Assembly (NCBI GenBank): GCA_016213945.1 | Contig: JACQZF010000048.1 | Coordinates: 33,854-97,853 of the forward strand | Length of the DNA: 64,000 bases | Reading direction: 5' to 3' | Origin: Nitrospirota bacterium | Lineage (GTDB): Bacteria; Nitrospirota; Thermodesulfovibrionia; UBA6902 | Shown here: positions 3,699-40,579 of the stretch, piece by piece | How positions within the stretch are numbered: the first letter of the stretch is position 1 | Layout of the letters: the number at the start of each line of letters is the position of its first letter | Notes under the pieces: generated by a model | Seen by the model: the letters and a program-made list of their open reading frames with translations, nothing else | Databases searched by the model: none | Told to the model about the DNA's origin: nothing | Position numbers and translations under genes: made by a program

Positions 3699-3755
3699 GT
3701 CATTCCGGCTTGTTCGGAATCCTTTTTAAGAAGATTCCCGACAAGCGGGAATGAC
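3699..3755. repeat. REP-like palindromic element copy 1 (GTCATTCCGGCTTGTTCGGAATCC...GATTCCCGACAAGCGGGAATGAC) between two glutamate synthase genes
   Basis: Two inverted ~24-nt hairpin units. The termini GTCATTCC...GGAATGAC are shared by all copies. Confidence 0.7.
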
Positions 3756-3803
3756 ATCATTCGGTAACTTCCGCGCTTTTGCTCTTCTGCGCTATTGAAC
3801 TTT

Positions 3804-5465
3804 TTAACATACATAATTAATCTGTAGTCTCTCTGCAATCGCATGGTCGTCTGTGCTGATGCCGTCTGACATGCCGATTGGCAGTTCCGTGCTTCGGCCC
3901 ATTGGGGCGAATATTTTCTTCAACTCTATATCCAATGATTTGTAAACTTCAACCACCCTCTCTGCAACCACATCAGGGTCAAGCCTCCTGTAGAGTTTTG
4001 GGTCCTGAGTCGTGATGCCTCTCGGGCATTTGCCAAGGTTGCATACGTTGCAGCGGTTCATCTCATCTCCATGACAGGCTGCTGCCGCCTGCATGATATA
4101 TTTCCCGATTGAAACAGCGGATGCGCCTAACATGAAGAGCGCTGCAGCATTCGCCGCAAGGTTGCCCTTCTTTCCGACACCTCCTGCCGCAATGAGAGGC
4201 AGTTCATTCTGTTTGCCGTATTTTACGAGGTCGAGATAGCATTCTCTAATATTGGATGCGATGGGATGCCCCATCGTGTCCATTGATACGGCGTATGCCG
4301 CGCCTGTCCCGCCGTCCTCACCGTCAATCGAAAGGGCAGCGGCATACTGATTTCTGACTAAATTATTCAGGACCGCCTTTGCAGTCCGCGTTCCTGAGAT
4401 CTTCGGATAGACAGGGACCCTGAAGCCCCACGCCATGGACATTGACTGGATCATCTTTGCGACAGACTCTTCAATCGAATATTTCGTCTGATGCGTCGGA
4501 GGCGAGGGGAGGTCTACACCCATCGGCACTCCCCGAATCTCTGAGATTAATTTCAAAACCTTGTGCGCCATCAGGAGCCCGCCGTCTCCGGGCTTTGCGC
4601 CCTGCCCGTATTTGATCTCAATCGCGCAGGGGTCTTCGATCATATGAGGGAGCGTCCTGATAATCTCGTCCCAGCCGAAATAACCTGAGGCGATCTGGGG
4701 TATAAAATATTTAATGAACCTCGACTTGAGAAGCCTGTGCGGCATCCCGCCTTCACCTGAGCACATGACAACCGGCATCCCTTCAACTTCATTGAGATAC
4801 GTAATGCCCATTGCAAGCCCTTCCCACATGGTGGGAGAAAGCGCGCCGATGGACATGCTGCCTATCATCACAGGGTATATTTCCCGGACAGGCGGTATGA
4901 ATTTACCGGTAGTTTTATCAGCATCGAGCTTGCCGTCAATCATCTTCAGCGGCAGTTCTTCCGCAGGCAGTATCCTGCCTAAGTACGTACGTATCCTGAA
5001 TTCGTGCCTGCCTGCGTCAAGCGCAGGGTCGGTGAGCATGGAGATTCTTGTAAATCTCAATCTGTCCAAAGTGGAAGGCGACGGATCGTTTCTCCTGCCG
5101 CCCCTTCTGTAGGGATGACCGCCTTTGTTTTTATGGAAGTTGAATTTATGCTGCGGATTATACTCCGGCTCAATTGCCTCGTTGGGACAAACGAGTGTGC
5201 AGGTCCCGCAGCCAATGCAATAGCGTTCTATATTGGTTGTCTGTTTGACCATAGTCGTGACAACCCGCGCTGCTTTGGGTTCAGGTGTCATTCCTTCTGA
5301 CTGTAAAACCCGTTTTACAACAACAACCGGTTCTATTGAAAGCATCGGGCAGACGGCTGTGCACCTGCCGCAGCGTTTGCACCTGTCATCACGCCATCTA
5401 ACAACGTATGGTAGATCTTTTACTGAAAGCTCATGATTATGGTCTAAGCGTGAAGCTGGTTCCAT
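3804..5465 (-). CDS. Glutamate synthase FMN-binding domain protein (archaeal-type domain 2) with an N-terminal 2x[4Fe-4S] ferredoxin
   Basis: It carries CKRCGRCTAVCP / CIGCGTCTLVCP and the Glu_synthase core (GVDLPSPPTHQ..., IDGEDGGTGAA, LIAAGGVGKKGN). Confidence 0.8.
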   Translation of the reverse strand: MEPASRLDHNHELSVKDLPYVVRWRDDRCKRCGRCTAVCPMLSIEPVVVVKRVLQSEGMTPEPKAARVVTTMVKQTTNIERYCIGCGTCTLVCPNEAIEPEYNPQHKFNFHKNKGGHPYRRGGRRNDPSPSTLDRLRFTRISMLTDPALDAGRHEFRIRTYLGRILPAEELPLKMIDGKLDADKTTGKFIPPVREIYPVMIGSMSIGALSPTMWEGLAMGITYLNEVEGMPVVMCSGEGGMPHRLLKSRFIKYFIPQIASGYFGWDEIIRTLPHMIEDPCAIEIKYGQGAKPGDGGLLMAHKVLKLISEIRGVPMGVDLPSPPTHQTKYSIEESVAKMIQSMSMAWGFRVPVYPKISGTRTAKAVLNNLVRNQYAAALSIDGEDGGTGAAYAVSMDTMGHPIASNIRECYLDLVKYGKQNELPLIAAGGVGKKGNLAANAAALFMLGASAVSIGKYIMQAAAACHGDEMNRCNVCNLGKCPRGITTQDPKLYRRLDPDVVAERVVEVYKSLDIELKKIFAPMGRSTELPIGMSDGISTDDHAIAERLQINYVC

Positions 5466-6553
5466 ACCATCACCTCCTGCGCTCCCGGCTTGACGATAAC
5501 CATGTCGTACTTCATGGGGAATATATCCTGAGCTTTATCTCTCACAGATATTACGCTGTCAAGCCCGCACTCCTCGGACATAAATCCGTACTTGCCTTTC
5601 ACGCCGCCGACAACACCCGGCCTGAGTTTCTTGGCGTCCTGGACCATAAGGCACGTCCCGTCCGGCGTAAAGGCAATGACGCAATTCGGGCCGTCTATGC
5701 AGAGCGGTCTCAAGGATATTTTTAACAATCTCGCGACTTCGCTGTCACTTCTTTTATCAATCTCAGACTGTTTAAGCGGCGTAATTACGTCCTTATAATA
5801 TGTAAGCGGATAACCAAGCTGCTTGCAGGTGTAATGCAAAATGTGACAGAAGACTTCGCTGTCGCTGTTGTAACCGATATATCCGGAAAAGTTCCTGCTC
5901 ATTAAAAATTCTCTTATAGGCACGAACGCCGTATTCTCGCCGTTTGTCATCGAGCCGTAACCCTGAATGAAAAAAGGATGACACGCATACATGTTGATAG
6001 CATAATTGGTATTCTGTCTTCCCTGGGCAAAGATAATCTTTGCTTTAAGCGGGGATTTATCAAGGCCGAAAAACTCACTGAGTTCAAGAGGATCGCCTAC
6101 CTCTTTCAATGTCAGGATATCAGGATAGAATGAGAAAACTATAATTGACTCATCACCCTCTCCGAATTTTCTGAGGGCGAGTCTCGTCTTCAGGAGCAGG
6201 TCTTCCTTATCTTCCTGAGCGCTGTATTTGTAGACATCCGGATAATCATAGACACGTGCAAAATAGTGATCGCGGCCAACAATCCCCCTGACCGTTCTGA
6301 GCTTGGGGGTCCAGGTGTATTTCAGTTTGAACCCGAGCTTGTTCATGTAATCATCAAGCGTCTTCATCCCCTCCTTGGAACAAATGCCTGACAGGATAGG
6401 GTATTCCTTCAGCTCCTCAAATTCACCGCCGAGGCTTTTCAGGATAAGCCCCATACCGGAGCCGTCATGCCCTTCCTTCATGGTCTCAAGGGCATTGATA
6501 TTCTCCATCGGAGAGAAGTATTCACTTGATGTTATCGCGGCAAGTCTGCACAT
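5444..6553 (-). CDS. Class II (Ntn) glutamine amidotransferase domain protein (archaeal-type glutamate synthase domain 1)
   Basis: It starts MCRLAAI, giving a Cys2 nucleophile. It is the first gene of a three-gene operon whose order mirrors domain 1-2-3 of GltB. Confidence 0.7.
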   Translation of the reverse strand: MCRLAAITSSEYFSPMENINALETMKEGHDGSGMGLILKSLGGEFEELKEYPILSGICSKEGMKTLDDYMNKLGFKLKYTWTPKLRTVRGIVGRDHYFARVYDYPDVYKYSAQEDKEDLLLKTRLALRKFGEGDESIIVFSFYPDILTLKEVGDPLELSEFFGLDKSPLKAKIIFAQGRQNTNYAINMYACHPFFIQGYGSMTNGENTAFVPIREFLMSRNFSGYIGYNSDSEVFCHILHYTCKQLGYPLTYYKDVITPLKQSEIDKRSDSEVARLLKISLRPLCIDGPNCVIAFTPDGTCLMVQDAKKLRPGVVGGVKGKYGFMSEECGLDSVISVRDKAQDIFPMKYDMVIVKPGAQEVMVWNQLHA

Positions 6554-6886
6554 ATCTTTTTCGTAACTATGCTTTTTATTCAGGCAAAAAGAGCGTCCAT
6601 ACCATTCCCTAAAACATCTTTATGGTAGTAGACGCTGCTGAATGGTTAAAGCGTTCCTCCGAATAATAATACCAATTAGATATGGTTTTTGTAAACTTGG
6701 TTACCGGCCCCGAATCTGCTTTAGAAAAATTGTCAGTGCTAACGAAGCTAAGCAATCACTGTTTTTTGACAATTGCCACGAACCCTCCGGATTTCAGCAA
6801 TGACACGTCAATAAAGGCTTAATGCTTTCTATATCGGAATTCGGGTTGACAGTTGCGCTTTTCTTATTTCGCACTATAATTAAATT

Positions 6887-7369
6887 ATGAAACGTCTCAT
6901 GGCCTTATTCGCTTTTATTATTTACGTCTCAGGCTGCGCCCACGTCGTGCCACAAGAGTTAAGGGACAAAGCAGAGAAGGGGACATCAGTTCCCGCGCTC
7001 TTCAAGGACCCTGATGAATACAAAGGCAGGATTTTCATTCTTGGAGGCGCTATTGTAAGCGCTGTAAACATGCAGGACGGGACATATATTGAGGTGGTTG
7101 AAAAGCCGCTCGATTATCGTGGAAGGCCGGAGTACACGGACATATCCCGCGGCAGGTTTCTTGTTTTATACGAAGGGTATCTTGATACGGCAGTGTTCTC
7201 TCCCGGCAGGGACGTTACCGTGGCCGGCGAGGTTATAGGGACAAGGGTCCGCCATCTTGGAGAAATTAACTACTCATATCTTCTTTTGAGAAGCAGGGGG
7301 CTTTATTTATTAAAACAGGGAAACGGGGTTCCTATTCAGTTTGGGATTGGCATATGGCACAGCTTTTAG
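6887..7369 (+). CDS. slp: Slp family outer-membrane lipoprotein
   Basis: Signal peptide with lipobox VSGC. Its length and sequence (DPDEYKGRIFILGGAIV...) resemble starvation lipoprotein Slp. Confidence 0.6.
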   Translation: MKRLMALFAFIIYVSGCAHVVPQELRDKAEKGTSVPALFKDPDEYKGRIFILGGAIVSAVNMQDGTYIEVVEKPLDYRGRPEYTDISRGRFLVLYEGYLDTAVFSPGRDVTVAGEVIGTRVRHLGEINYSYLLLRSRGLYLLKQGNGVPIQFGIGIWHSF

Positions 7370-7435
7370 TGCGAGTAATACAGACATTATTAAATAAATT
7401 GCATGGTATGTTTTGTTGATAAACCCGGCTGATTT

Positions 7436-7503
7436 GTCATTCCCGCAAGCGAAGCGCGTCGGGAATCCTTCTTGAAGAAAGATTCCGGACAAGCCGGAAT
7501 GAC
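7436..7503. repeat. REP-like palindromic element copy 2 (between slp and tpx)
   Basis: GTCATTCCCGCAAGCGAAGCGCGTCGGGAATCC-N12-GATTCCGGACAAGCCGGAATGAC. Confidence 0.7.
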
Positions 7504-7541
7504 AGAAACAAACACTATTTATTTCATAACGCAAGGAGGAA

Positions 7542-8045: not shown

Positions 8046-8073
8046 CCTATAAAAAACAAGACAAGGAGGGTTT

Positions 8074-8523: not shown

Positions 8524-8525
8524 CC

Positions 8526-10142: not shown

Positions 10143-10219
10143 TGTCATTCCCGCAATTTGTTGAGCGGGAATCCAGAGTCTTTTCATAAAGAACTGGATT
10201 CCCATTTTCATGGGAATGA
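10143..10219. repeat. REP-like palindromic element copy 3 (between the MFS and isochorismatase genes)
   Basis: GTCATTCCCGCAATTTGTTGAGCGGGAATCC...GGATTCCCATTTTCATGGGAATGAC. Confidence 0.7.
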
Positions 10220-10245
10220 CGAAAAAGCGCGGTTGCAAATAAAGT

Positions 10246-10797: not shown

Positions 10798-10808
10798 GAT
10801 TAAAGATG

Positions 10809-11123: not shown

Positions 11124-14048
11124 TCAAAACAACTGACTCTTCACCTTCTGATGTGTGAGCTTTGCGAATTCCATAATGTCTTTAATTGATGCTCCCTTAT
11201 CCCTCAGACTATAAAAAGTGTTTTCACCAAGCAGCGCATAGTTCCACTCGCACTCCATTCTGTCATCTGGTTTCAGATCATTAATTTTATTGAGCCAATC
11301 CAAAGCAGCAAGTTCTTTTTGCCGCACGTTGGCATCGTTCAAATCTTTGGTTGCCTTTGTTTCGACGAGGTAGATTGATGAATTCACCTTTACGATAAAG
11401 TCCGGATAATAAGACGACAGCATACCGTCGTTGCGGATATAATTTAAGTGGGCGAAATCATGATAATTCTCATTGATCTTCACGAAGCTGTTAACCAGAG
11501 AATCGCTGTCACAGAAGAGCATGAATTTTCTCTCTAATTCTCCTTTGTTTGAAGGGTAAGGAAGTTTCTCATATATTGTCTTTGTAATATCGAGAGAATA
11601 ATTTTCACGCATCTTCAATTCATTTACTTCAGAAAAGTATTTCTTGATTACAACCGCCTCTTCAACATCGATATTGTTCTGCATATCATAAATAATCTGG
11701 CTGAGTTCTTTCACGATATGCTGGATAATGCCTGCCTTTGAAAGCATCAGGACACGCCAGTTGTTGTCCTTAAACGGATCAAAGGTCTCATTGAACAGGC
11801 GGTTTCGAATAAAGTCGTCAACAACCTTTATGAGAGATGCATTATTTATTTGCATTACAGGATAATCCTTCATCGTTCTCTGACTGACTTTGACGAGAGT
11901 GCTGGTAATCACTTTAATGATTTTCGCCATCAATTCGTTATAACTTTTGGCGGTGAATAGGTCGCCTGTTACTTTGTAATCTCCAAAACGGGTCTTAACG
12001 GTTATTTCCTCTGAAACAAAAATCTCCTCTTTGGGAACCATCGCCTTGAGTTTATCCAGTTGATACCAGTCAACTCCTGCAAAATATTTTGTGGATGGCT
12101 CCATTACCTGCAAGGTCTCCTCTCTGTCCCTAATAACAATAGGCCAATAAAGATCATAGTCTTTATAGTTGCTTTTCAATCCGACCTTTATGATATCTCC
12201 GAGGATGCTTTCCCGATCTTCAGGCAAATCATGCGTTTCAGCGATAGAACCTTCCTTAACAAGTTCATCATAAAATTCGATAAAGGCAGGGTGCTCAACA
12301 ATACTCAGAATATCGAGATAATTTGACGGCTCTTCTTTTCTTTGTAAAAGCTTGATCCTGTTCTCAGTCTTTATCTCCTGATAATCCGGTTCGCGCCACA
12401 TGAGGCGCAGACCTCTGCCGATGATCTGTTCAAGAAGGATCGGGGCCTGCGTTGACCGCAACGGAACGATAACACAGATATTGCTTACATCAAAACCTTC
12501 CCGAAGCATCAGGACAGATACAATGACCTTCGGGCTGGAATGATTATCTATGTTAAAAAGCCGCTGTTTAACTTTCCCCCATTCCTTTGCAGGTATTGAG
12601 CCTTTCTTGTCTGAATCTATCTGAACAACATCTTCTTCGCCAAGCCCTTCGTTGTCAGCAAGAAACTGCGTCACAAAAGGAGAAACCTTTGTATCCTCGC
12701 ATATCACCAGCATCTTTGGATGCTTGTCTGACATTCCAGATGTATCAGAAGTTAAAGTCACAAACTGTTCTTCCAGTATCATTAATTTCTGCAAGCCTGC
12801 CCTGAGCATGAGCTTCTGCCCGTCAGAAAGACCGACCACTGTATTCCCTTCACGGACAGCTTTGAAATCAAGCTCCATTGTGGCAATCTCCTTACGCTTA
12901 TCAAGAGTAATTGTCTTCACAAGTCCCTGATGAATGGCTGTCTTAAGATCAAAGTCCACGACAATATGAGGGAAGAAATGTTTCGTCCTTTTCTGTCCGC
13001 TTCCGGTCACATCATAGGGAGTTGCTGAAAAATCAATCTGGATAAAACTTCTGCCTTTGCCTTCGGCAATTTTGTTCAGCGATTTCTGCCATTCAACTTC
13101 AGAGACGATACCGGCCTTCTTTGTTTCATGAATGTGGTGCGCCTCGTCATTAAAGACGACCATATTCTCAAGTCCTGCGAGATATTCAATCTCACCCCCG
13201 CTCAAATACTGATTATCGAGAGTTTCGAGGGAATGTCCTGTTGACGTGCCGGGCGTGATCGGGAATATTTCCTTTACCGCCTTTGAAGGGTCTTCCAATG
13301 GAGCTGTCTCAGTGTATTCCTCTTCTTCAACTCCTGACAAGAGATGCCAATTGGTAATGGCGATCATTCCGTCACCGGTAATCTTCTTTCCTATCTCTTC
13401 TTTTCTAACAACATTGGATTGGATAAAGCCAAAGAGTGTTTCTTTATATGCAGAAGGGATGAACAAGTCCTCGAACTTTTTGAAGTCCGATGTGGCAAAG
13501 TTCCTTGTACCGTCCTGTCCTTCCTTGCCCAGATAAGCGTCCAGAAGTCGTTCATATACAATTAAACCCGGCGCTACGATTAAAAACCTTTGGGAATAAA
13601 GACCGCTTGGCGATTCTTCATGTCTTGCATTGAGATATTGCCATATCAAGAGAGCATTCAGCACCCATGTCTTGCCAGTGCCTGTAGCCATCTTGATGCA
13701 GTATTTTGGATGGCTGAATTTGTCTTTTTTGAGATAGGACAGATCCATCTCGGCAGTAATGTCACTGCTAACTGAGGAATACATATCGAACACAGACTCT
13801 GCCTTCAAAATTTCATGAGTATAGATTGTATTCAGGATTGCCTGTCTCTGTCCTTCGTGAAAGTTGACTGTCCTTGCGTCACAGAAGGGACCGGAGAACC
13901 AGAACCTGAGCAGGTCTTGCGTAACCGGCGTAGTTTTGCTGATGAAGCTGCCGTTTTCCCATTCGCTGATTACCAGCGCTGAGAGTTCTTTAGCAAATTT
14001 CAATGGTATGTCGCGCGTGCCTGTGTTAAGAGCAATACTCATAATCAA
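11124..14048 (-). CDS. res: Type III restriction enzyme Res subunit (SF2 helicase plus C-terminal PD-(D/E)xK endonuclease)
   Basis: Walker A MATGTGKT, DEAH box VVFNDEAHH, and a C-terminal ...YLVETKATKD endonuclease-type motif. Confidence 0.85.
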   Translation of the reverse strand: MIMSIALNTGTRDIPLKFAKELSALVISEWENGSFISKTTPVTQDLLRFWFSGPFCDARTVNFHEGQRQAILNTIYTHEILKAESVFDMYSSVSSDITAEMDLSYLKKDKFSHPKYCIKMATGTGKTWVLNALLIWQYLNARHEESPSGLYSQRFLIVAPGLIVYERLLDAYLGKEGQDGTRNFATSDFKKFEDLFIPSAYKETLFGFIQSNVVRKEEIGKKITGDGMIAITNWHLLSGVEEEEYTETAPLEDPSKAVKEIFPITPGTSTGHSLETLDNQYLSGGEIEYLAGLENMVVFNDEAHHIHETKKAGIVSEVEWQKSLNKIAEGKGRSFIQIDFSATPYDVTGSGQKRTKHFFPHIVVDFDLKTAIHQGLVKTITLDKRKEIATMELDFKAVREGNTVVGLSDGQKLMLRAGLQKLMILEEQFVTLTSDTSGMSDKHPKMLVICEDTKVSPFVTQFLADNEGLGEEDVVQIDSDKKGSIPAKEWGKVKQRLFNIDNHSSPKVIVSVLMLREGFDVSNICVIVPLRSTQAPILLEQIIGRGLRLMWREPDYQEIKTENRIKLLQRKEEPSNYLDILSIVEHPAFIEFYDELVKEGSIAETHDLPEDRESILGDIIKVGLKSNYKDYDLYWPIVIRDREETLQVMEPSTKYFAGVDWYQLDKLKAMVPKEEIFVSEEITVKTRFGDYKVTGDLFTAKSYNELMAKIIKVITSTLVKVSQRTMKDYPVMQINNASLIKVVDDFIRNRLFNETFDPFKDNNWRVLMLSKAGIIQHIVKELSQIIYDMQNNIDVEEAVVIKKYFSEVNELKMRENYSLDITKTIYEKLPYPSNKGELERKFMLFCDSDSLVNSFVKINENYHDFAHLNYIRNDGMLSSYYPDFIVKVNSSIYLVETKATKDLNDANVRQKELAALDWLNKINDLKPDDRMECEWNYALLGENTFYSLRDKGASIKDIMEFAKLTHQKVKSQLF

Positions 14049-14364
14049 CTACCCGTCAACTAAATATTATCTTAATAATCAGCTTGTTATCGTAATTGTC
14101 GGTCAAATCTATAATCTCCAATCAAGTATCCAGCTTTGTTAGCCATTTGTTAAACGAATCTTCAGTTTTGCCTTTTTAACAAAGGATAACCCCTTGAAAT
14201 AAATATAGTTAGATGCATAGGACCTTTGATTATTCTTTAATCTCCTTTGTTAAAATCGTGTTCGTTCTGCCTCAGTTGCCTAAGGAGCTATTCTTTGTGC
14301 CTGCATTCAATGAGATGGACATTATCTACCAGCAGCCGCTAAATTATTTTGCCTGCCGAATAAA

Positions 14365-14387
14365 GATTCTGGACAAGCCAGAATGAC
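14365..14387. repeat. Half copy of the REP-like element (GATTCTGGACAAGCCAGAATGAC) in the vapC-res intergenic region
   Basis: It matches the right-hand hairpin unit of the family. Confidence 0.5.
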
Positions 14388-14403
14388 AAAGTTAAGGAAA
14401 ACA

Positions 14404-14787
14404 TTACACAAGTTCAACACCGGCAATCCTTTTGAAATGGTTTTTGTTAATAGTTGCGAGCGGGAGGTTGTAAGCCAGTGAAGTTGCAGCGATAAAAATA
14501 TCCGGAATTTCTATAAGCTTATTTTGGGATTTAAGACCACTGTAAATATCTCTTGCTTTTAGAGCGCATTTTGAATCAAACGGTAGGACATCAATGTTTT
14601 TCAACAGGCTTTTGCCGAACTCCAATTCTCTATCTTTAAAGCCCACCAGCCATTCAAATTCGGTTATAACAGAAATTACCACGCTGTGCTTCCTGGCTAT
14701 CTCTACCAGGATGGCAGTCTCTTTTTTCTGCTTTCTGAAATACTCAACAAGAATTGAAGTGTCAACTAAAACTTTGCCGGTTTCCAT
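14404..14787 (-). CDS. vapC: PIN-domain toxin (VapC-like)
   Basis: 127 aa starting VLVDTSILVEY... with conserved acidic residues. It overlaps the upstream antitoxin. Confidence 0.7.
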   Translation of the reverse strand: METGKVLVDTSILVEYFRKQKKETAILVEIARKHSVVISVITEFEWLVGFKDRELEFGKSLLKNIDVLPFDSKCALKARDIYSGLKSQNKLIEIPDIFIAATSLAYNLPLATINKNHFKRIAGVELV

Positions 14788-14999
14788 CTTTTCATGTCCT
14801 CCCTTACAGCAAGAAAAGCTTTAATGTCATCTTCTCCTAATACAGGTCCCTTCATAAGAACTTCTGAAAGTTTCTTTTTTGTCTCTCTTTTTGTATAAGG
14901 CAAAATAATCACTTCAACCTTTTCATCTTTAAAATCTTCGGGAAGATCGATAACTACCCTTCTGTTTTTCACATTCTTAATCTCTCTTAATGCCCGCAT
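14766..14999 (-). CDS. Antitoxin (VapB/Phd-like) partnered with the PIN toxin
   Basis: 77 aa, overlaps vapC by 22 nt, small charged protein. Confidence 0.5.
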   Translation of the reverse strand: MRALREIKNVKNRRVVIDLPEDFKDEKVEVIILPYTKRETKKKLSEVLMKGPVLGEDDIKAFLAVREDMKRWKPAKF

Positions 15000-15040
15000 A
15001 CAGTTACCTCCTTTCTCATGCTTACTCTATATTATACCCA

Positions 15041-16972
15041 TTACCCCACTTCCTCCACTACCACGCTTTCAAACCCAAACACATCAACCGCCTTCACGCA
15101 GATCCTGCGTTTGCCTTTGACTTTTGGTGATAAGATGCTGACTTCTTTCACGACCCTGAAGGGGTCTGCATCATTGCCAACATTGCTTCTGTAATCCTGC
15201 CATTTACTGCGGAAGGTTTCGCCGTCGTAGTCAGGGTCTACGCTCCAGTATTCAATAAGCGCAAGAGGGTCATGCGCGATGATGTCCTGCAATTTTTCCT
15301 TGTTTGCGTCATCAAGGGGCAGGGCGTCAGGAGAGAGCAGGATGTAATTGTCCAGTTCGATAGTTATTTCATCAATATCGGATGAATAGTTTTTCAGAAC
15401 AGGCTTTTTGATGGAGAGATACTGAAGCGATGAGAAGCGTATCTTGCCGCTTTTCAGGAGGCTTTCATAACTGGACTTTGTCTTGAGCTTGTCGAGAAGA
15501 TCAGGAGGAATAACCAGCACCTCAAGTTTATCGTCGTTGAAGTTCTTGATGACCGTTGCAATATCAAAAACAAAGTTCCAGCCGAGGACTACCACCTTGT
15601 TCCACCCGCCAAGAAAGGACTCCCTCAATTCCTGCGCCTTCTTCAATGTTGCATAGCCGGTCAGTTTTGAAGGGGAATCAACCATGACGAGGGTGCGTGA
15701 ATTTTTGATATATCCAAGGTTGCGATTTGGATTCTGCTCATCAGGGAAGGGTAATGCGCCGTAGAGGTTGAGGACGACCTGCGACAAATCACCGATGCGC
15801 CTGAACAGTCGGCTTGAGGTAAAGGCCTCTTTCTGGTAATCCCCGATTGATTGGTAGAGGAATGGCTTCGCCTCCTGATCTATAAGCCGCTGCCTCGTAA
15901 TCATGATAGCAGGCTTGCCGATGTCGGACATTATCCACCTGCGGCCATTTTTTTCGGCAACTGTTCCGGTAGAGCCGGAGCCGGAGAAGAAGTCGGCGAT
16001 GATGGAATTTTCGTTGGAAGAACTTTTGATGATGCGCTCAAATAGTTTTTCAGGTTTTTGTGTCGTATAGTCAACTCTTTCTTTTGCAACTGGATTGACT
16101 GGCGGAATATCGTCCCAGACCGAATCAACAATATCGCCTTCAACGTCATCTAAATATATTTTTCTTGTACCGCCGCCTGTGGGGTTCACATCCGTTCTGC
16201 ATAATCTTCCTGTTTCATCAGGCTTGAACCTTTTCAAATACTGCTCATTATGCGGTTTGTATTGTGTATTCCAAATGTATGATGCAGACTTCGTGTAAGA
16301 ATAAATCACATCGTGCTTTTGAGGAAACTTTTTTGCCGTAGCTCGCTTAAAACCAAAATATGTCCACACAATTTCATTTCTGAAATTTTCTTTCCCAAAC
16401 ACATCATCCATCAACACCTTCACATAATGCCCGACATGCCAATCAAGATGGACATAGATTGATCCCTGCTCGCTCAGCAATTCTCTCATCAATGCAAGTC
16501 TCGGATACATCATTCGCAGATAACTGACTGTCCCGTCTTTCCATGTGTCGGAATAGGCAAACTGCTCCAGTACGGTCGGCTTCTGTTCGATGGTGGTTCC
16601 GGGCAGGGTGATCTTTGTCCGGTAATCAGCTTTGCTGTCAAAAGGCGGGTCATTATAGATAAGATCAACCTTGCCGCGCATGGAAGGCAAACCGGTTGCC
16701 GGATCACCGGCAAGCAATGCCTGCATCACAAGCAGGTTGTCGCCATAAATAAGCCTGTTGTGCCATTCCTGCTCTGAAATTTCCTTCAGTTGCCCGCGAT
16801 AAAGCCCGGACTTGTCCTTGGATGGCAGCACATACTCATTGGTCTGCAAGGTAAGCTTATTGGTCCCGGACAACCTCTCAAGTATCCGCTCCACTTCCTT
16901 CTTACCCTCGGCAACAATCTTTGATAGTTGGTCGATTAAAGATTCAGGCATGATAAATATATGTCCCTTCAA
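15041..16972 (-). CDS. mod: Type III R-M Mod subunit (beta-class N6-adenine DNA methyltransferase)
   Basis: Motif IV (DLIYNDPPF) precedes motif I (FFSGSGSTG), which is the beta-class order. It lies in the same transcriptional direction as res. Confidence 0.85.
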
Positions 16973-20418: not shown

Positions 20419-20476
20419 GTCACTCCGGCTTGTCCAGAGTCTTTCTTAAAAAGGATTCCCGACAAGCGGGAATGAC
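20419..20476. repeat. REP-like palindromic element copy 5 (between the antiporter and kinase genes)
   Basis: GTCACTCCGGCTTGTCCAGAGTC...GGATTCCCGACAAGCGGGAATGAC. Confidence 0.7.
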
Positions 20477-22803: not shown

Positions 22804-24065
22804 TTAATGCTCGTAAGAGGTAATGTCCCTTTCTTTTGTTTCTTTCAAAAAAAGCTCTCCAATGACTACTGTCGCAATCGAAACAACGATCGGATACCAT
22901 AGTCCGTAATAGATATCCCCTGTTGCCGCTACCATCGCCGTAGCTGTAAGCGGCAGCAAACCGCCGAACCAGCCATTGCCTATGTGATACGGCAAAGACA
23001 TGGATGTGTAGCGAATCCGGGTCGGGAACAACTCGACCAGGAACGCCGCGATCGGGCCATACACCATGGTGACGTAGATAACGAAGATAAACAGGATGAG
23101 CAGGACCATAGGATAGTTGATCTTGCTCTTGTCAGCTTCAGCAGGATAGCCCTGGGCTTTCAGCGCCTCTTTTACTGCCTGCTCGTTCCAGCCGACGATC
23201 TCGGTCGTTCCAATTGTTGTTACAACATCCTTGCCCTCCACTCCAGGGAGCGTAGTGAAGCTTAATCCCTGCTTGGTCATGTAGTCCTTAGCACGGTCAC
23301 AGTTGCTGAACTTGCTCCACGGGCCGACAAAAATGTGGAAGTTGCAATCGGATTCGTTTGCGGCAACAGAGATCTGCGTCCTGTTCTGAAAATCCTCCAG
23401 CGCCGGGTTGACATAGTGCGTCAGAGCCTTGAACATCGGGAAGTAGGTCACTGCCGCTATCAAACAGCCGACCAGGATGATCTTGAGCCGGCCTATCTTG
23501 TCCGACAGTTTGCCGAAGACGATGAAAAAGGGTGTCCCGAGGAGCAGAGACGCACCTATCAGTGTGTAAGTTGTAAGGAAATCGAGCTTCAGCGTGATCC
23601 GCCGTATTCTCCGCCAAGCGCAAGTCCCTGAAGCAGACGCAGCGTCACAAGAATAACCGGGGCGAACCAGCCGACCGAATCGAAAGTAGGCAGAAGGCCG
23701 ACCCCGAAAGTCGCAAGACCCATAACGACGATTGTTACTAAAAATGTGTATTTGCGGCCTACCAGATCACCGATGCGGCCAAACACGAGCGCGCCGAAAG
23801 GACGCACAAGAAAGCCCGCGGCGTATGTTGCGAATGCCGAAAGGAGTGCTGCCGTTTCGTTACCTTTCGGAAAAAACAGCGCGGCAAAGAACGGCGCCAG
23901 CGTTGCGTACAGGTAAAAGTCGTACCACTCGAATACCGTTCCAACCGATGAAGCGACGATAACCAGCTTTTCATCTTTGGATATCGGAGCTTTTTCTGCT
24001 ACTTGATCTGTTGCTATAGTTGTGCTCATTGAGCAATACCTCCTTTTTATTTTGTTGTTTGGCAA
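22804..24065 (-). pseudogene. MFS transporter of the metabolite:H+ symporter (MHS) family, interrupted by a frameshift/stop near 23589-23625 and carrying a ~100 aa hydrophilic insertion
   Basis: The N-terminal ORF (23589..24065) ends ...LGGEYGGSR*. The continuing frame reads ...LDFLTTYTLIGASLLLGTPFFIVFGKLSDKIGR... then ...ELFPTRIRYTSMSL... Both are MHS hallmarks, but they lie in different frames. Confidence 0.5.
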
Positions 24066-24889: not shown

Positions 24890-24912
24890 GTCATTCCGCA
24901 GTCTCTTAGGTA
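24890..24912. repeat. Degenerate partial copy of the REP-like element (GTCATTCCGCAGTCTCTTAGG) in the cNMP/galU divergent region
   Basis: It matches only the first ~20 nt of copy 6. Confidence 0.3.
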
Positions 24913-28340: not shown

Positions 28341-28430
28341 AAAATATAATGGACCACTGAGACGCTGAGAAGATTAAATATATTCTTGCCTTTTTCTTTC
28401 TCATTTTTCATTTCAAGATTTTTGTATTTT

Positions 28431-28470
28431 CCTCAGTGCCTCTGTGACCTCTGTGGTTGATTTATAAACT
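28431..28470 (+). repeat. Dispersed ~19-bp motif copy A (TTTCCTCAGTGCCTCTGTG + ACCTCTGTG), ending at the thiL start codon
   Basis: Matches copies B and C at 17/19 positions. Confidence 0.6.
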
Positions 28471-30880: not shown

Positions 30881-32077
30881 TCAACTGCCCGCGATGATCT
30901 TCCCCTCGTATGACACAAGATGTGCGGTAACTGGGATGCCATCAATTATTGTTTCAGCATATTTCTTTGCATGAACGCAAACCTTTGGAAACAGTGACAA
31001 GTGACGGGTGACGGGTGACGAGTTAATAAAGTCAAAAATCTCTCTTGCAGTATTGAAGTCCTTTTCCTCAGGCACAGTAATTCCGAGCGAGTTTAAAAAC
31101 TCTACGGCCTTCTTCATATCAATCGCTCCGAATCTCACATGAGTCTGCGGAGTCGCCATTGCTATCTTGACCATCTTGGCCCATTGCGCGCAGAGATGGA
31201 TTTTTTTAAATCCATGTTTCTTTGCCTCTCGCAGTGAGTATTCGAGATAGTCGCCGATGAGGACATATGATTCTTCGGGAAGATGATATTCCGCCATGTG
31301 CGCCTTTTCAGATGTCCGTCCCGCAGAAAGGACTATCTCCTGAAGCCCTGCCGCCTTTGCCACCTTCATTGATGAAGTAATTGTAGCCGTCCACGCTTCG
31401 GCAGATACAGGTTTGACAATACCCGTTGTGCCGAGTATCGAGATGCCGCCCGTTATGCCGAGTCTCGCATTTAAAGTCTTCTTCGCCAGCTCCTCTCCGT
31501 GAGGCACGGAGATAGTGACCTCAAGAAGAGCAGAAGTGCAAAAATGCAGAAGCGCAGAAGATGCATTGGTTTCCGAGTAGCTTTTCTCATCTTCCGCTTT
31601 TGCACTTTTGCACTTTTGCTCTTTTGCACTATTATCCAGCAACGCTTCCCTCACTGCCTCTTCTATCATCTTTCTCGGTACAGGATTGATCGCCGCTTCA
31701 CCAACAGGAACCGGCAGTCCGGGCTTCGTGACAATACCAACGCCCTTGCCGCCTTTGATTAAAATCAGGGATTGGGGATTGGGGATTGGGGATTGCTCTG
31801 TGCTCTGAATTCTGACTTCCGCCGCTATTTCAGCGCCGTTGGTTATATCCGGGTCATCTCCCGCGTCCTTTATTACCGATGCAATTGCCGTAAATATTCC
31901 GTCCTGAACTCTGAATTCTGAATTCTGAATTCTGAATTTATGCCTGCTGCCGTCAGGGAAGGGAATGTCAACATCAGTGACGGGTGACGGGTGACGGGTG
32001 GCGAGCAAGGCTGCCGCTTTCGCAGCGGCCGCCGCGCATGCGCCTGTTGTATATCCTGAGCGTAAATTCTTTTTCAT
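30881..32077 (-). CDS. cbiD: Cobalt-precorrin-5B (C1)-methyltransferase CbiD, carrying at least six in-frame tandem-repeat insertions
   Basis: N-terminus LRSGYTTGACAAAAAKAA. The inserted peptides SPVTRHPSPVT, RIQNSEFRVQ, QSPIPNPQS and AKEQKCKSAKAEDEK are encoded by heptamer/octamer arrays. Confidence 0.75.
   Translation of the reverse strand: MKKNLRSGYTTGACAAAAAKAAALLATRHPSPVTDVDIPFPDGSRHKFRIQNSEFRVQDGIFTAIASVIKDAGDDPDITNGAEIAAEVRIQSTEQSPIPNPQSLILIKGGKGVGIVTKPGLPVPVGEAAINPVPRKMIEEAVREALLDNSAKEQKCKSAKAEDEKSYSETNASSALLHFCTSALLEVTISVPHGEELAKKTLNARLGITGGISILGTTGIVKPVSAEAWTATITSSMKVAKAAGLQEIVLSAGRTSEKAHMAEYHLPEESYVLIGDYLEYSLREAKKHGFKKIHLCAQWAKMVKIAMATPQTHVRFGAIDMKKAVEFLNSLGITVPEEKDFNTAREIFDFINSSPVTRHLSLFPKVCVHAKKYAETIIDGIPVTAHLVSYEGKIIAGS
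30994..31021. repeat. 4 x heptamer GTGACGG tandem array, in-frame inside cbiD
   Basis: gtgacaa gtgacgg gtgacgg gtgacga. Confidence 0.9.
31530..31561. repeat. 4 x octamer GCAGAAGN tandem array inside cbiD; inverted counterpart of the 31597-31628 array
   Basis: gcagaagt gcaaaaat gcagaagc gcagaaga. Confidence 0.85.
31597..31628. repeat. 4 x octamer CTTTTGCA tandem array inside cbiD
   Basis: cttttgca x2, cttttgct, cttttgca. An 18-bp segment TTGCTCTTTTGCACTATT recurs at 43947-43964. Confidence 0.85.
31768..31795. repeat. ~4 x heptamer GGATTGG tandem array inside cbiD
   Basis: gggattggggattggggattggggattg. Confidence 0.9.
31904..31938. repeat. 5 x heptamer CTGAATT tandem array inside cbiD
   Basis: ctgaact then ctgaatt x4. 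Confidence 0.9.
31977..32004. repeat. 4 x heptamer GTGACGG tandem array inside cbiD (same unit and orientation as 30994-31021)
   Basis: gtgacgg x3, then gtggcga. Confidence 0.9.
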
Positions 32078-32123: not shown

Positions 32124-32190
32124 TCCGCAGATTAAACACACGAATTAATATTTTTAAATCTGTGTAGCTCTGTGTAATCTGTGGATGGAG
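32124..32190. repeat. Intergenic cbiD-manC spacer packed with 9-10-mer tandem repeats (TCCGCAGAT x2; ATCTGTGTA / GCTCTGTGTA / ATCTGTGGA)
   Basis: Visible tandem units. Confidence 0.7.
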
Positions 32191-32228
32191 TTTTCTCCGT
32201 GCCTCTGTGGTTAATTTGTTTATAGCGG
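32191..32228 (+). repeat. Dispersed 19-bp motif copy B (TTTTCTCCGTGCCTCTGTG) in the cbiD/manC spacer
   Basis: Identical 19-mer to copy C. Confidence 0.65.
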
Positions 32229-32231
32229 AAT

Positions 32232-33763: not shown

Positions 33764-34759
33764 CTACAAAAGCCCTGTTCCCCAGGGATGCGCATTTTTC
33801 CCAAGCTGGATGGTGTCTATTACTTTGTTGTTTTTCAGATCGATCACCGAAATACTGTTGTCGGCCTTGTTGGCGACATAGGCTTTCCTGGCCGCATGAT
33901 CTATCGCAATGCCTTTGGGCGATGCCCCGACCTTTATTGAGCCTGTCACAGTATCAGTGGTGGTATCAATTACTGCAACGCTGTTGTCCCCGGCGCAAGT
34001 AACGTAAATCCTGTTGGCAGACGCATCAACGCCTATATACCAGGGATTTAAGCCAACCGGTACCGTCCCTTCAACCTTATTGGCTGCCGTATCTATAATA
34101 GCAACGGCATTGTCATCGTGGCTTGTTACATACACTTTTTTGCTTGCGGAACTGTATGCCAGGCCCAAAGGTATTTTGCCGACGGGTATCTTTGTGATTT
34201 CCGTGTTGTCCCTGAGACTGATGACCGAAACATACTGGCCGCCTGAAATAACAATATATGCAAGTTTCTTATCAGGGACAAGCGCCGTTTCAAACGGCTC
34301 GATACCATCAAATTTTATTCTGCCTTTTATTGAATCATTTGTAATATCAATGATGGTTACGCTTTTATTTTCCTTGTCATCGGTATTTGTGACATAAGCG
34401 AGATTTGATTCAGGATCAATTGCCATATGCATCGGACCAATGTCTGTTTTTATGGTATTGACAACCTCATTGGTTGTCGTGTCAATCACAGATACTGAAC
34501 TGCTTTCGGCGCTTGAGTTAAGGACGTAAATCTTCTTTTTGTCAGGACTGACCGCAAGGCCCGCAGGCCATTTTCCAACCTGAATTGTTTCCAGTATCTG
34601 ATTAGTGGCGGTATCTATGACCGCTACATTTTCAGCCCCTGAATTCACTATATAAAGCCGTGGAGCTTTTGCAGAGCGGGTGACATCGCTTCCGCTTACT
34701 GTAACAGGAGGCATTGCAAGTGACAAGAACAGAAGCAGAAAGATTCGCAGTGATTTCAT
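33764..34759 (-). CDS. Secreted YVTN-family beta-propeller repeat protein
   Basis: Signal peptide, then ~40-aa repeats of the pattern ...YV.N...SV.VIDT.TN.V..TI.VG..P.G.A. Confidence 0.6.
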   Translation of the reverse strand: MKSLRIFLLLFLSLAMPPVTVSGSDVTRSAKAPRLYIVNSGAENVAVIDTATNQILETIQVGKWPAGLAVSPDKKKIYVLNSSAESSSVSVIDTTTNEVVNTIKTDIGPMHMAIDPESNLAYVTNTDDKENKSVTIIDITNDSIKGRIKFDGIEPFETALVPDKKLAYIVISGGQYVSVISLRDNTEITKIPVGKIPLGLAYSSASKKVYVTSHDDNAVAIIDTAANKVEGTVPVGLNPWYIGVDASANRIYVTCAGDNSVAVIDTTTDTVTGSIKVGASPKGIAIDHAARKAYVANKADNSISVIDLKNNKVIDTIQLGKNAHPWGTGLL

Positions 34760-37431: not shown

Positions 37432-39680
37432 ATGGACCTGCCGTAAGCAGCCTGGCCGAGGGCCAAGCCGCCATCATTTGGAGGGACAAGCTGGTGGACC
37501 AGCGGCGTGAACCCGGTTTCTTTAAGACGCCGGAAGGTGTTTTCAAGAAGCACCGCGTTTTGAAATACCCCTCCTGATAATGCAACTGCGGTTATGCCGG
37601 TTTCATCCCTGACGGATTCTGAAACGTTAACGATTATCTCAACGACCGTATTGTGGAATTTTTTTGCGATCACCTCTATCGGGGTTCCGGCCTTTAGATC
37701 GTCGACTATGTTATCGATGACAGGGAATTGATAAATCATGTTGTTTTTGACAACAACCGGATACGAGTCTGTTATGTCAGATCTCTCAGCCGCCTGTTCC
37801 AGTTCAATAGCGGCCTGGGCGTGATAGGATACCCTGTGCTTTAATCCGGCAATAGAGGCAACTCCGTCAAAGAGCCTTCCCATGCTTGTTGTGAGCGGGG
37901 AGTTAATGTCCTTTTCCATCATGCTGATCAGGAACGATCTCTCCTCTTCACTCAGGGGGATGAAATCAAAATCTTTTGCCCTTTCACCAAACGTCTCGTA
38001 TAAGAGTGAAAGGGCTGTCCTGCAAGGCTCTTTAACAGCCTTGTCCCCGCCCGGAAGTTTATAGGGCTGTAAATGATACGCCCTTTTAAATCCCCTGTAT
38101 GAGGATATCAGAACCTCCCCGCCCCAGATTGTTTTGTCAGTCCCGTAACCCGTCCCGTCAAATGCGAAACCTATTACTTCCGCATCTTCAGCTATTTCGT
38201 TTTCAGCCATGCACGACAAAATGTGGGAATAATGGTGCTGCGCCTTTACCAGCCTGTCGGCGTAATGCGCTTCCCCGTATTTTGTGCTGTAATATCCGGG
38301 ATGCAGATCCGAGACAACTATTTCAGGCTGAACGTCAAATAACCTGAGAAAATCTTTTATCGTCTCATCATAAAATTCCACTGCGAGCGGGGTGTCGAGG
38401 TCTCCTATGTGCTGGGACAAAAACACCCTGTCATCAATGCCGAGAGCAATGGTGTTGTTCATATAGGGCCCAAGGGCGAGGACGGGCTTACTGAATTTAA
38501 AAGGCACGTTTACAGGCAGAGGCGCAAAACCCCTTGAACGCCTCACCGGCGCCTGTCTTTCAGCTACAATTCTTACGACTGAATCATCACATCTTCTGAC
38601 GATCTCCCTGTTATGCGAGAGAAAATAGTCGGCTATCGCTGAGAGCCGGGAAAAGGCGTCAGCATTATCTTTTGCAATCGGTTCGTCCGTGGTGTTGGCG
38701 CTTGTGGCCACAACAGGCTTTTTCAGTTTTTTTAAGATCAAATGATGCAGCGGCGTATATGGAAGAAATACTCCGGCGGTTCTGTTGCCGGGCGAGACAG
38801 AATGGGCGAGAGCAGTGCCCTCTCTTTTTTTGACTATTACAACCGGCCTCTCTATCGATTGAACTGCGCGCTCCTCCAGCATGTTAAGATGCGTTTCTTT
38901 CTTTATTGAATCCAGGTCCGGGAACATTACAGCAAGGGGCTTTTCCTCCCGGTGTTTCTTTTGTCTCAACCTGCTGACAGCGTCTTCATTTGTCGCGTCG
39001 CAGATAAGATGATATCCGCCAAGGCCTTTTACAGCAACGATATACCCTTTGCGGACCAGGTTTACGGCCTTTTCAAGCGCATCTTCTTTTTCACATAATA
39101 ACGCGCCTTCGCAGTCATAGAGGCTTATCCACGGCCCGCATTCATGACACGCGTCAGGCTGGGCGTGAAATCTCCTGTCATCGGGGAGGCTATATTCCTT
39201 CTCACATTTTGGACACATCCTGAAATCTTTCATGGCAGTATTTTTTCTGTCATAGGGCAGTTTATTGATAATGGTAAATCTGGGCCCGCAGTTTGTGCAG
39301 TTCGTAAAGGGATAGAGGAACCTGCGGTCTTTGGGATTTGTCACATCATTCAGGCATTCATCACAGACAGTTAGGTCGGGAAGAATGAGCGCACTTTTGT
39401 CGCCTTCTTCTCTGCTTTCCCGTATCTCGAACTCTCCGCAGCCGGATTCTTCAAGGAAGGTATGGCGGAGGCTGTAGATTCTTGAGAGCGCGGGTTTATC
39501 TTTTTCCACGCGGACGAGGAATTCATCGAGCTTTTCCTTTTCCCCCTCGGCTTCAATCAGTACACCGGCTGTGTCGTTTAACACATATCCTCTCAATCCC
39601 AATTCCCCGGCCAGCCTGTAAACAAACGGCCTGAAACCCACTCCCTGGACAAGTCCCGTTATGTTGACTTTTAATCTCAT
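37428..39680 (-). CDS. hypF: [NiFe]-hydrogenase maturation carbamoyltransferase HypF
   Basis: Acylphosphatase N-terminus, two CxxC...CxxC zinc fingers, and YrdC plus Kae1-like domains. Confidence 0.9.
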   Translation of the reverse strand: MRLKVNITGLVQGVGFRPFVYRLAGELGLRGYVLNDTAGVLIEAEGEKEKLDEFLVRVEKDKPALSRIYSLRHTFLEESGCGEFEIRESREEGDKSALILPDLTVCDECLNDVTNPKDRRFLYPFTNCTNCGPRFTIINKLPYDRKNTAMKDFRMCPKCEKEYSLPDDRRFHAQPDACHECGPWISLYDCEGALLCEKEDALEKAVNLVRKGYIVAVKGLGGYHLICDATNEDAVSRLRQKKHREEKPLAVMFPDLDSIKKETHLNMLEERAVQSIERPVVIVKKREGTALAHSVSPGNRTAGVFLPYTPLHHLILKKLKKPVVATSANTTDEPIAKDNADAFSRLSAIADYFLSHNREIVRRCDDSVVRIVAERQAPVRRSRGFAPLPVNVPFKFSKPVLALGPYMNNTIALGIDDRVFLSQHIGDLDTPLAVEFYDETIKDFLRLFDVQPEIVVSDLHPGYYSTKYGEAHYADRLVKAQHHYSHILSCMAENEIAEDAEVIGFAFDGTGYGTDKTIWGGEVLISSYRGFKRAYHLQPYKLPGGDKAVKEPCRTALSLLYETFGERAKDFDFIPLSEEERSFLISMMEKDINSPLTTSMGRLFDGVASIAGLKHRVSYHAQAAIELEQAAERSDITDSYPVVVKNNMIYQFPVIDNIVDDLKAGTPIEVIAKKFHNTVVEIIVNVSESVRDETGITAVALSGGVFQNAVLLENTFRRLKETGFTPLVHQLVPPNDGGLALGQAAYGRSI

Positions 39681-39698
39681 AGGGTATATTTATAATAA

Positions 39699-40478
39699 AT
39701 GATTTTAAGAAAATTCAGAATGATATTATTCTTCGGGCTGTCCATTCTCCTGTATTCCATACAGCCTGCTGGATCAGAAGCCGCTCCTGTTTTCACCTAT
39801 AAAATCGTCAACACTTATCCTCATGACCAGCAGGCCTTCACGCAGGGGCTGGTTTTTAAAGAAGGTGTTTTGTATGAAGGGACAGGGCTGAACGGACAGT
39901 CTTCGTTGCGGAAGGTAAAACTTGAAAACGGGGAGGTCCTTAAAATTCATAAACTGCCGCCGGAGTTTTTCGGTGAGGGGATTACCGTCTGCGGGGACAA
40001 GATCATCCAACTTACATGGAAGTCCCACGCCGGATTTGTTTACGATAAGGACAGCTTTAAGCTGTTCAAGCAATTCAGCTATCCCACAGAAGGATGGGGC
40101 CTTACATATGACGGCAGGCAGTTGATCATGAGTGACGGGACAGAGGGCCTGTATTTTCTTGACCCGGAAACCTTTAAAGAACTCCGCCGGATCAAAGCGC
40201 ATGACAGTAAAGGCCCTGTGATCAAGCTCAATGAACTGGAATATATTAACGGCGAGATATTCGCAAATATATGGCCGACGGACCTGATTGTAAAGATCGA
40301 TCCGCGGACAGGCCGTGTAACAGGATGGATAAACCTGGAAGGGCTTTCTCCTGTCAATGACGGACAGAAGAAAAAGGTACTTAACGGCATTGCCTATGAC
40401 GCAAAGAGCGACAGGTTGTTTGTTACGGGTAAATTGTGGCCTGCTCTTTATGAGATTAAACTGGTACCTTTAGAGTAA
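39699..40478 (+). CDS. Glutaminyl-peptide cyclotransferase (bacterial/plant beta-propeller type), secreted
   Basis: Signal peptide and a typical QC sequence (…QQAFTQGLVF…YEGTG…). Confidence 0.6.
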   Translation: MILRKFRMILFFGLSILLYSIQPAGSEAAPVFTYKIVNTYPHDQQAFTQGLVFKEGVLYEGTGLNGQSSLRKVKLENGEVLKIHKLPPEFFGEGITVCGDKIIQLTWKSHAGFVYDKDSFKLFKQFSYPTEGWGLTYDGRQLIMSDGTEGLYFLDPETFKELRRIKAHDSKGPVIKLNELEYINGEIFANIWPTDLIVKIDPRTGRVTGWINLEGLSPVNDGQKKKVLNGIAYDAKSDRLFVTGKLWPALYEIKLVPLE

Positions 40479-40500
40479 TTAGTGTCTGCCCATAAGTAAC

Positions 40501-40579
40501 GTCATTCCCGCAGTCCTTTGAGCGGGAATCCAGTTTTTCAACAAGTTCTGGATACCCGATTACAGACTTCGGGCATGAC
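40501..40579. repeat. REP-like palindromic element copy 6 (after the cyclotransferase gene)
   Basis: GTCATTCCCGCAGTCCTTTGAGCGGGAATCC...GGATACCCGATTACAGACTTCGGGCATGAC. Confidence 0.65.

Follow-up and report, generated by a model that had tools for sequence, protein, structure and literature searches.

The DNA analysed here is a 64,000-nt stretch (positions 33,854 to 97,853 of the forward strand) of contig JACQZF010000048.1 from a Nitrospirota bacterium (assembly GCA_016213945.1), which is referred to below as the window. It contains a family of short palindromic elements dispersed in the gaps between genes. In total, 11 hairpin units could be identified, organized as five inverted doublets (E1-E5) and one singlet, all of which are intergenic (Table 1). 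Judged by their sequences, these elements are members of a family that has already been described under several names: the CGTC-tagged repetitive extragenic palindromes (REPs), the Neisseria dRS3/NTS repeats and the Ssn-related motifs (SRMs). What is new here is a subfamily member in the Nitrospirota lineage with a unit variant that lies mostly outside the published SRM pattern. In related DNA, units of the window type bracket a small nuclease gene, and one site that is occupied in the window is differently occupied or empty in two syntenic relatives.

All copies are located within the first 40.6 kb of the window (six loci per 64 kb), and a stop codon precedes five of the six loci at a distance of 7-48 nt. 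An earlier inspection of the sequence (the original prediction) had proposed five full copies and a half copy of a palindromic family. Each of them was found at the site claimed, the third one being displaced by a single base, and the proposed arrangement of two hairpin units in inverted orientation was correct. Their position between genes, including the GltB-like/GltD-like and PIN/ResIII gaps, is borne out by flanking open reading frames (ORFs) with Pfam support.

Table 1 Hairpin elements in the window and the genes around them
Feature	Coordinates	Strand	Composition or support	Position and neighbouring genes
Doublet E1	3699..3755		a-type unit 3699-3721 (+), spacer CTTTTTAAGAA, b-type unit 3733-3755 (-)	48 nt past the GltB-like stop, 20 nt ahead of the GltD-like start; both genes on the - strand
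GltB-like gene	3804-5465	-	Pfam support	
GltD-like gene	1345-3678	-	Pfam support	
Doublet E2	7436..7503		long-loop c-type unit 7436-7467 (+; loop CAAGCGAAGCGCGT), spacer CTTCTTGAAGAAA, a-type unit 7481-7503 (-)	Slp gene / Redoxin gene (Pfam)
Doublet E3	10144..10220		classical NTS-like, CCAG/CTGG tails; units 10144-10176 (+; 10-nt loop) and 10194-10220 (-; CGTCATTCCCATGAAAATGGGAATCCAG)	25 nt past the isochorismatase stop codon; isochorismatase / MFS (Pfam)
Singlet	14365..14387	-	a-type unit GTCATTCTGGCTTGTCCAGAATC, compensated C-G to T-A stem change; covariance model 42.3 bits	16 nt past the stop of a PIN-domain gene (14404-14787), 316 nt ahead of the start of a ResIII gene (11124-14048)
Doublet E4	20419..20476		decayed a-type unit 20419-20441 (+; one stem mismatch), spacer TTTCTTAAAAAG, b-type unit 20454-20476 (-)	7 nt past the Ser/Thr kinase stop; Ser-Thr kinase / Na-H exchanger (Pfam)
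Doublet E5	40501..40579		NTS-like, CCAG/CTGG tails; units 40501-40533 (+) and 40548-40579 (-; diverged, G-T wobble in stem)	22 nt past the glutaminyl cyclase stop

Ten occurrences of the head octamer GTCATTCC were counted in the window, compared with 2.24 +/- 1.59 in dinucleotide-shuffled sequences, and none of 100 shuffles reached 10. A covariance model was built from the 11 half-units, whose own values of 35-44 bits are training-set scores. When the 64 kb were scanned with this model, the next best match reached merely 10.7 bits; thus, no further copies are present in the window. A degenerate fragment at 24890-24912 (+) had also been assigned to the family. It has the head GTCATTCC and a loose likeness to the loop of the unit at 40501, but lacks a 3' arm, does not fold and was not recovered by the covariance model at E<=10, and we therefore rejected it. 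The singlet and the PIN-domain toxin gene beside it lie between the two genes of a type III restriction-modification pair (11124-16972; Mod, 15041-16972; Res, 11124-14048). The C-terminus of the Res protein has a weak match to TnsA-like endonucleases (Pfam).

Structure of the hairpin units

In each doublet, two inverted units point their heads outward and are separated by a spacer of 11-23 nt. The unit reads [T/C]GTC-ATTCC(N2-3)-loop-(N2-3)GGAAT-C, in which the GTC before the palindrome and the C after it are invariant columns in all 11 units. According to fold prediction, each single unit forms a hairpin of 7-8 bp that leaves the GTC and the 3' C unpaired, with a stability of -1.7 to -9.5 kcal/mol as DNA. 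In the window units 90.9% of the stem cells are paired, and the loop measures 4-5 nt in seven units and 9-14 nt in the other four. Stem pairing is under selection: changes on both sides that keep the pairing were observed at six of the eight stem pairs in the 11-unit alignment (C-G to G-C, C-G to T-A, G-C to A-T and T-A to C-G), and neither any of 500 shuffles nor any shifted register reached the observed values.

Folding of the entire doublet into a single long hairpin is likewise possible (z-scores -3.3 to -6.5). Nevertheless, it is precisely at the covarying positions that the left and right units of a given doublet differ from each other. In E1, the left and right units have CCGG...TCGG and CCCG...CGGG, respectively, and the two loops of E2 have 14 nt and 5 nt. 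Thus, the local hairpin rather than the long one is the conserved unit. Target-site duplications of the kind left by miniature inverted-repeat transposable elements were not observed, as no direct repeats could be found at the ends of the five doublets or of E2-type copies in other genomes.

Related repeats and Ssn cassettes in other genomes

The CGTC-tagged REPs were defined by a CGTC or TGTC head, a stem of 8-9 bp, a loop of 4-5 nt and a 3-bp tail. They are mostly inverted dimers in intergenic regions, have no associated transposase and include, as CGTC-1, the dRS3 repeat of Neisseria (Di Nocera, De Gregorio and Rocco 2013, PMC3733652). Recently, dRS3 was extended to the 28-nt NTS, CGTCATTCCCGCGMAVGCGGGAATCYRG (Chenal et al., Nat Commun 2025, PMC11893778). 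According to the same study, SsnA, a GIY-YIG protein of 94 aa, binds the NTS as single-stranded DNA (ssDNA) only and on one strand only, and cuts it a few nt upstream. Binding depends critically on the C that follows the palindrome, and cleavage on the three bases that precede it; the enzyme is inactive on RNA. SRMs bracket ssn homologues across bacteria, and the effect demonstrated in Neisseria is the restriction of incoming transforming ssDNA that carries the NTS (PMC11893778). In the window units, these SsnA-critical positions (GTC and 3' C) do not vary.

We scanned one genome per species with a doublet pattern and obtained at least 120 stretches. Among the matches listed, Proteobacteria, Nitrospirota, Bacteroidota, Planctomycetota, Chloroflexota, Patescibacteria, Omnitrophota, Spirochaetota and other phyla were represented, as well as cultured isolates of Povalibacter uvarum, Dyella, Duganella, Sphingopyxis and Pedobacter; Povalibacter and sphingomonads have been named as SRM-rich (Chenal et al. 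2025, PMC11893778). The listed matches contain 148 distinct units from 100 loci, in which pairing holds for 98.3% of the stem cells, covariation is seen at the inner three pairs and ATTCC/GGAAT is nearly fixed. The variants typical of the window (short CTTGT loop or CAAGCRAAGCGCGT loop) recur, among the same matches, mainly in metagenome-assembled genomes (MAGs) of Nitrospirae/Thermodesulfovibrionales. With one Nitrospirae MAG (L105), the window shares 69-73% identity in coding regions.

In related DNA, units of the window type are associated with a nuclease gene. At one locus (L025), an ORF for a GIY-YIG protein of 96 aa lies exactly between two inverted units. A metagenome collection was scanned for the head followed 290-350 nt later by a window-type short-loop unit, the two heads being ~330-380 nt apart. 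The scan yielded 110 stretches, whose lengths peak sharply at 361 nt. An Ssn-like gene was present between the units in 89 of them (tblastn), with an intact ORF in 73. The cassette protein has a median length of 105 aa, matches the Pfam family GIY-YIG (PF01541, E=1.5e-13), is 55% identical to the L025 protein and has the properties of the Ssn type (cd10448), namely a single GIY-YIG domain, fewer than 150 aa and hairpin repeats on both sides. Counted by eye, Y7, Y18 and E65 of the L025 protein have the same Tyr-Tyr-Glu spacing as Y6, Y17 and E64, the residues mutated in SsnA (PMC11893778). A sequence search of the PDB with the cassette protein revealed no close solved relative, the best hit being a UPF0213 GIY-YIG protein (E=0.044).

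The cassettes are arranged in the order a-unit, TTTCT, TATAAT-like stretch, ORF, GGAAAG and inverted a-unit. In 63 of the 73 cassettes with an intact ORF, the last six codons and the stop (ATT CCG GAC AAG CCG GAA TGA, encoding IPDKPE) are the right-hand unit itself. The end units are identical in 57 (left) and 72 (right) of these cassettes; whole cassettes are only 72% identical. Gene-less doublets with a short-loop unit on one side amounted to 36 in the window and the related loci. In 35 of them the partner of the a-type unit was a b-type (CCCG/CGGG stem) or c-type (long loop) unit, the exception being one locus (L114) with a near-a partner, and none of the 36 paired two canonical a units, in contrast to the a+a pairing of the cassettes. 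The spacer of the doublets is usually TTTCT...AGAAG, and doublets and cassettes have in common the end architecture and the TTTCT adjoining the a-unit. It is plausible that palindrome instability explains the absence of a+a doublets, since two inverted copies of one unit, separated by only a few bases, would amount to a long and perfect palindrome, and such palindromes are unstable (after Di Nocera et al.).

Doublets of the E2 type, ~90-93% identical by BLAST, are present in four other Nitrospirae MAGs with unrelated flanks. Their boundaries are sharp and fall between T and GTCATT on the left and between AATGAC and A on the right. Two metagenome contigs (L167 and L168) are syntenic with positions 1347-6553 of the window, and occupancy of the orthologous gltB/gltD spacer is variable: doublet E1 is found in the window, one different long-loop unit in L167 and no unit in L168. 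The last contig also carries an intact Ssn cassette ~6.5 kb beyond the syntenic spacer. The unit-free spacer itself (L168, 4449-4528) has a tandem AATTCAAA repeat instead. The flanks of the cassettes fell into 111 unrelated groups out of 126. In addition, public short-read contigs that are identical to the window stop within E2 and E3, which is the behaviour expected of a repeat present in many copies.

The close surroundings of the cassettes show some regularities of their own. In many cassettes (L123-L232), ...TTTGTGTGGAT stands directly before and ...CCCACAGGAATC ~17 nt after the cassette, despite unrelated wider flanks, and neither was found in the window. The recurrent flank motifs GGCTTTTGTGTGGAT and CCCACAGGAATC are likewise absent from the window. 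T occupies position -1 in 57 of 71 cassettes, and A occupies position +1 in 53 of 71. An outer repeat or a preference for certain targets could lie behind these regularities. Insertion into a palindromic target was considered and rejected, the two flanks not being complementary to each other.

Interpretation and rival explanations

Considering that the ends of the doublets are those of the unit-ssn-inverted unit cassette, the doublets are best read as non-autonomous companions of that cassette. We regard it as likely that the elements of the window are gene-less doublets and a singlet of the CGTC-REP/dRS3/SRM family with this relationship to an Ssn cassette. In single-stranded DNA, each unit would fold into its hairpin. 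An Ssn protein, that is, a small single-domain GIY-YIG enzyme encoded elsewhere in the genome, would then read the hairpin, the GTC head and the 3' C on one strand and, by analogy with SsnA of N. meningitidis, would nick the ssDNA a few bases 5' of the hairpin. Since the heads of a doublet point outward, the nicks would fall just outside the element, one per strand. The elements would probably spread or be maintained through the activity of Ssn on ssDNA in replication, repair or DNA uptake. From the Neisseria system we infer that the source organism may have an Ssn, that this enzyme may cut the units described here and that the cutting may drive their spread.

Several points weigh against this interpretation. 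The published SRM pattern matches one of the 11 units (match at 10143-10176, in E3) and one spurious site in the window. On direct reading, all 11 depart from the Neisseria NTS consensus by more than one mismatch, the closest one (10194-10220) differing at four positions. The invariance of the outer stem across phyla was partly imposed by the search pattern. No Ssn-like gene was found in the 64-kb window by regex or tblastn. It should also be noted that the spacing in the metagenome scan was set to the size of an Ssn gene, so that longer partners, for example a REP-associated tyrosine transposase (RAYT), could not turn up; RAYT-like ORFs were searched separately as a control. Furthermore, the doublets are a+b or a+c and the cassettes a+a, and thus doublets are not simple internal deletions of a cassette, an origin that was ruled out; one enzyme may or may not recognize the a, b and c stems alike. 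To our knowledge, no strand-transfer activity has been reported for GIY-YIG enzymes, so that the route from nicking to spreading is hypothetical.

A more far-reaching proposal, which we put forward only tentatively and consider somewhat doubtful, is that the hairpin-ssn-hairpin cassette might itself be mobile and autonomous, an element with a mechanism of a new kind in which a GIY-YIG single-strand nuclease takes the place of a transposase, and that the a+b and a+c doublets might be the miniature non-autonomous derivatives of the cassette. Because the right hairpin usually supplies the last six codons and the stop of the nuclease gene, recognition of the end and coding would be physically coupled. 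The idea of an element resembling an insertion sequence (IS) has been raised as a hypothesis only (Chenal et al., PMC11893778). To this hypothesis our analysis contributes three observations: the contexts of insertion are many and unrelated, one site differs between three relatives (filled, variant or empty), and the doublets follow a heterodimer rule.

Different explanations have to be weighed against the Ssn companion model. The position of most loci shortly after a stop codon is also what would be expected if the elements were kept mainly for a host function at the RNA level, either as weak bidirectional terminators or attenuators or as mRNA-stabilizing 3' hairpins, the repetition being due to convergent use of a favourable hairpin. 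REPs of E. coli stabilize upstream mRNA. In the window, five of the 11 units were flagged as terminator-like, with a T-rich tail or spacer after the hairpin (CTTTCTT, CCTTTTT), and in three of these five the flag falls on the sense strand of the gene upstream. However, the hairpins have short stems of low stability, their T tracts are not continuous and E1 is located inside an operon. Termination needs no invariant GTC head, fixed outer stem or 3' C across phyla; furthermore, SsnA is inactive on RNA and the window-type units bracket a nuclease gene. An RNA-level function is therefore unlikely to be the main reason why the elements are kept. The mRNA hairpins of the original prediction may be a side effect, given the weakly terminator-like units, but would leave the conserved head and tail unexplained. 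The same prediction would have been refuted by a match of the copies to a known structured-RNA family. A search of Rfam 15 revealed no match overlapping any element, either at the gathering threshold or at E<=1.

A second group of alternatives assigns the elements to other mobile systems. The classification as REP/BIME-like elements (BIME, bacterial interspersed mosaic element) and protein-binding sites, which had been suggested before, was right in kind, the head, stem, 3' C and dimer organization matching those of CGTC-REP/dRS3/NTS. The RAYT/IS200-like transposase that had been suggested together with them did not receive support. On a rival reading, the doublets are REPINs mobilized by a RAYT (an IS200/IS605-like Y1 enzyme) encoded elsewhere in the genome; inverted hairpin units that are also able to form one long hairpin are the REPIN architecture. 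The Neisseria repeat ATTCCCGCGCAGGCGGGAATC has indeed been treated as the REPIN population of a Group 2 RAYT (Bertels and Rainey), and RAYT-like ORFs do exist in some related loci. However, 1.46 Mb of related DNA contained two such ORFs (L065 and L228) and a fragment (L191), none of which was flanked by units. No Y1/RAYT-like ORF could be detected in the window by HUH/Y-motif regex, by tblastn with the RAYT-like protein of L065 or by Pfam. The head is [C/T]GTC and not the GTAG cut by RAYTs, no transposase is tied to CGTC REPs (Di Nocera et al., PMC3733652), and the gene actually bracketed by the window-type unit encodes a GIY-YIG protein. Thus, mobilization by a RAYT appears quite improbable. 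Even less probable, and to be considered only in passing, is that the units are attachment or target sites of a site-specific recombinase or an IS110-type transposase, as dRS3 is for Neisseria filamentous prophages. A phage recombinase targeting dRS3 in Neisseria is among the work cited in PMC11893778, and some IS elements are known to insert into REPs (PMC3733652). On the other hand, none of the 11 units is interrupted by an insertion, and a Pfam/NCBIfam search of the ~60 window ORFs revealed no transposase, integrase or GIY-YIG domain and no IS110 or prophage gene. Viral contigs seldom contain the pattern (39 stretches among 2.9 million contigs), so that a phage origin is not indicated, and being a target would leave the multiplication of the units unexplained.

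The findings have several implications. Ssn and NTS were described only in 2025, and the hairpin family is now seen to extend to a Nitrospirota genome, with roughly one locus in every 10 kb. As its unit variant is largely missed by the published SRM pattern, current motif counts may be underestimates. In genome annotation, such elements should be labelled as CGTC-REP/SRM repeats and not as RAYT-type REPs or RNA genes, and it should be kept in mind that they break short-read assemblies. The contrast between the cassette (a+a, with an ORF ending in the hairpin) and the doublet (a+b or a+c) also provides concrete substrates for asking whether Ssn enzymes spread their own repeats.

Other repeats in the window and comparison with known systems

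Additional repeats and genes of the window were recorded. A second repeat family consists of octamer-like units (CTTTTGCAC/GTGCAAAAG) at 31526-31639, with related copies at 43947-43995 and 3770-3810. The first copy is an inverted repeat with 29-nt arms that lies in frame inside a CbiD ORF (30881-32077, - strand), where it contributes ~35 residues (...KEQKCKSAKAEDEKSYSETNASSALLHFCTSALL...) and breaks the Pfam match up into two parts. Both remaining copies lie between genes, one of them 15 nt from E1. The sole Rfam match of this family was a meaningless sub-threshold hit to a plant miRNA. Near both ends of cbiD, at 30992-31022 and 31975-32005, runs of three to four heptamers (GTGACGG/GTGACAA) were found that have a mutual identity of 90%. 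Another short repeat, TTTTCTCCGTGCCTCTGTG(T/A)C, makes up the third family and occurs at 28418-28448, 32181-32211 and 53929-53967, the last copy being partly tandem. A gene for an MFS/sugar transporter (22804-24065, - strand) is divided into three overlapping ORFs (22804-23463, 23297-23623 and 23589-24065). Since Pfam matches only its N- and C-terminal parts, it is probably a pseudogene. Finally, a stand-alone gene for an HNH endonuclease of 100 aa (Pfam HNH_5/HNH) is present at 51508-51810, with no obvious mobile-element context.

Among the known systems, the REP/BIME elements of E. coli resemble the elements of the window in that they, too, are short palindromes between genes, placed directly downstream of a gene and in many cases within an operon. 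The sequences are unrelated, however, and the window has no clusters of alternating units. In relatives, tandem arrays of a+c doublets were observed in which the doublet plus ~69 nt is repeated, with a 138-nt period in three loci (L169, L182 and L205); arrays also occur in L191 and L160. Such arrays resemble Neisseria NIME or E. coli BIME clusters, and the window has none. The REPIN-RAYT system (Bertels and Rainey; Nunvar et al.) is similar in its inverted hairpin doublets as the unit of dispersal, in the intergenic location at about one per 10 kb and in a single-copy partner gene flanked on both sides by these units. It differs in the partner gene, which in related DNA encodes a GIY-YIG nuclease and not a Y1 (HUH) transposase, and in the head, which is GTC and not GTAG.

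The agreement with CGTC-tagged REPs is closer. The terminal CGTC is often TGTC, the stems have ~8 bp, the tail has 3 bp, and the elements are intergenic, lack a linked transposase and mostly occur as inverted dimers, often heterodimers that differ in stem or loop. Deviations are seen in some window loops, which have 9-14 nt, and in the Nitrospirota lineage. Compared with the NTS, whose loop has 4 nt, the window loops have 5 nt (CTTGT) or 9-14 nt, and the inner stem pairs differ. The Nitrospirota host belongs to a phylum absent from the main text of PMC11893778. With respect to Ssn, the window-type subfamily differs in that its ORF usually ends inside the right hairpin. On the other hand, the window units share with NTS and SRMs the 5' [C/T]GTC head, the ATTCC...GGAAT hairpin, the C after the palindrome and the intergenic location, and E3 and E5 have the CCAG tail as well. 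Finally, the order of unit, small GIY-YIG gene and inverted unit in related DNA, with a single-domain protein of ~100 aa, is that of the Ssn system.

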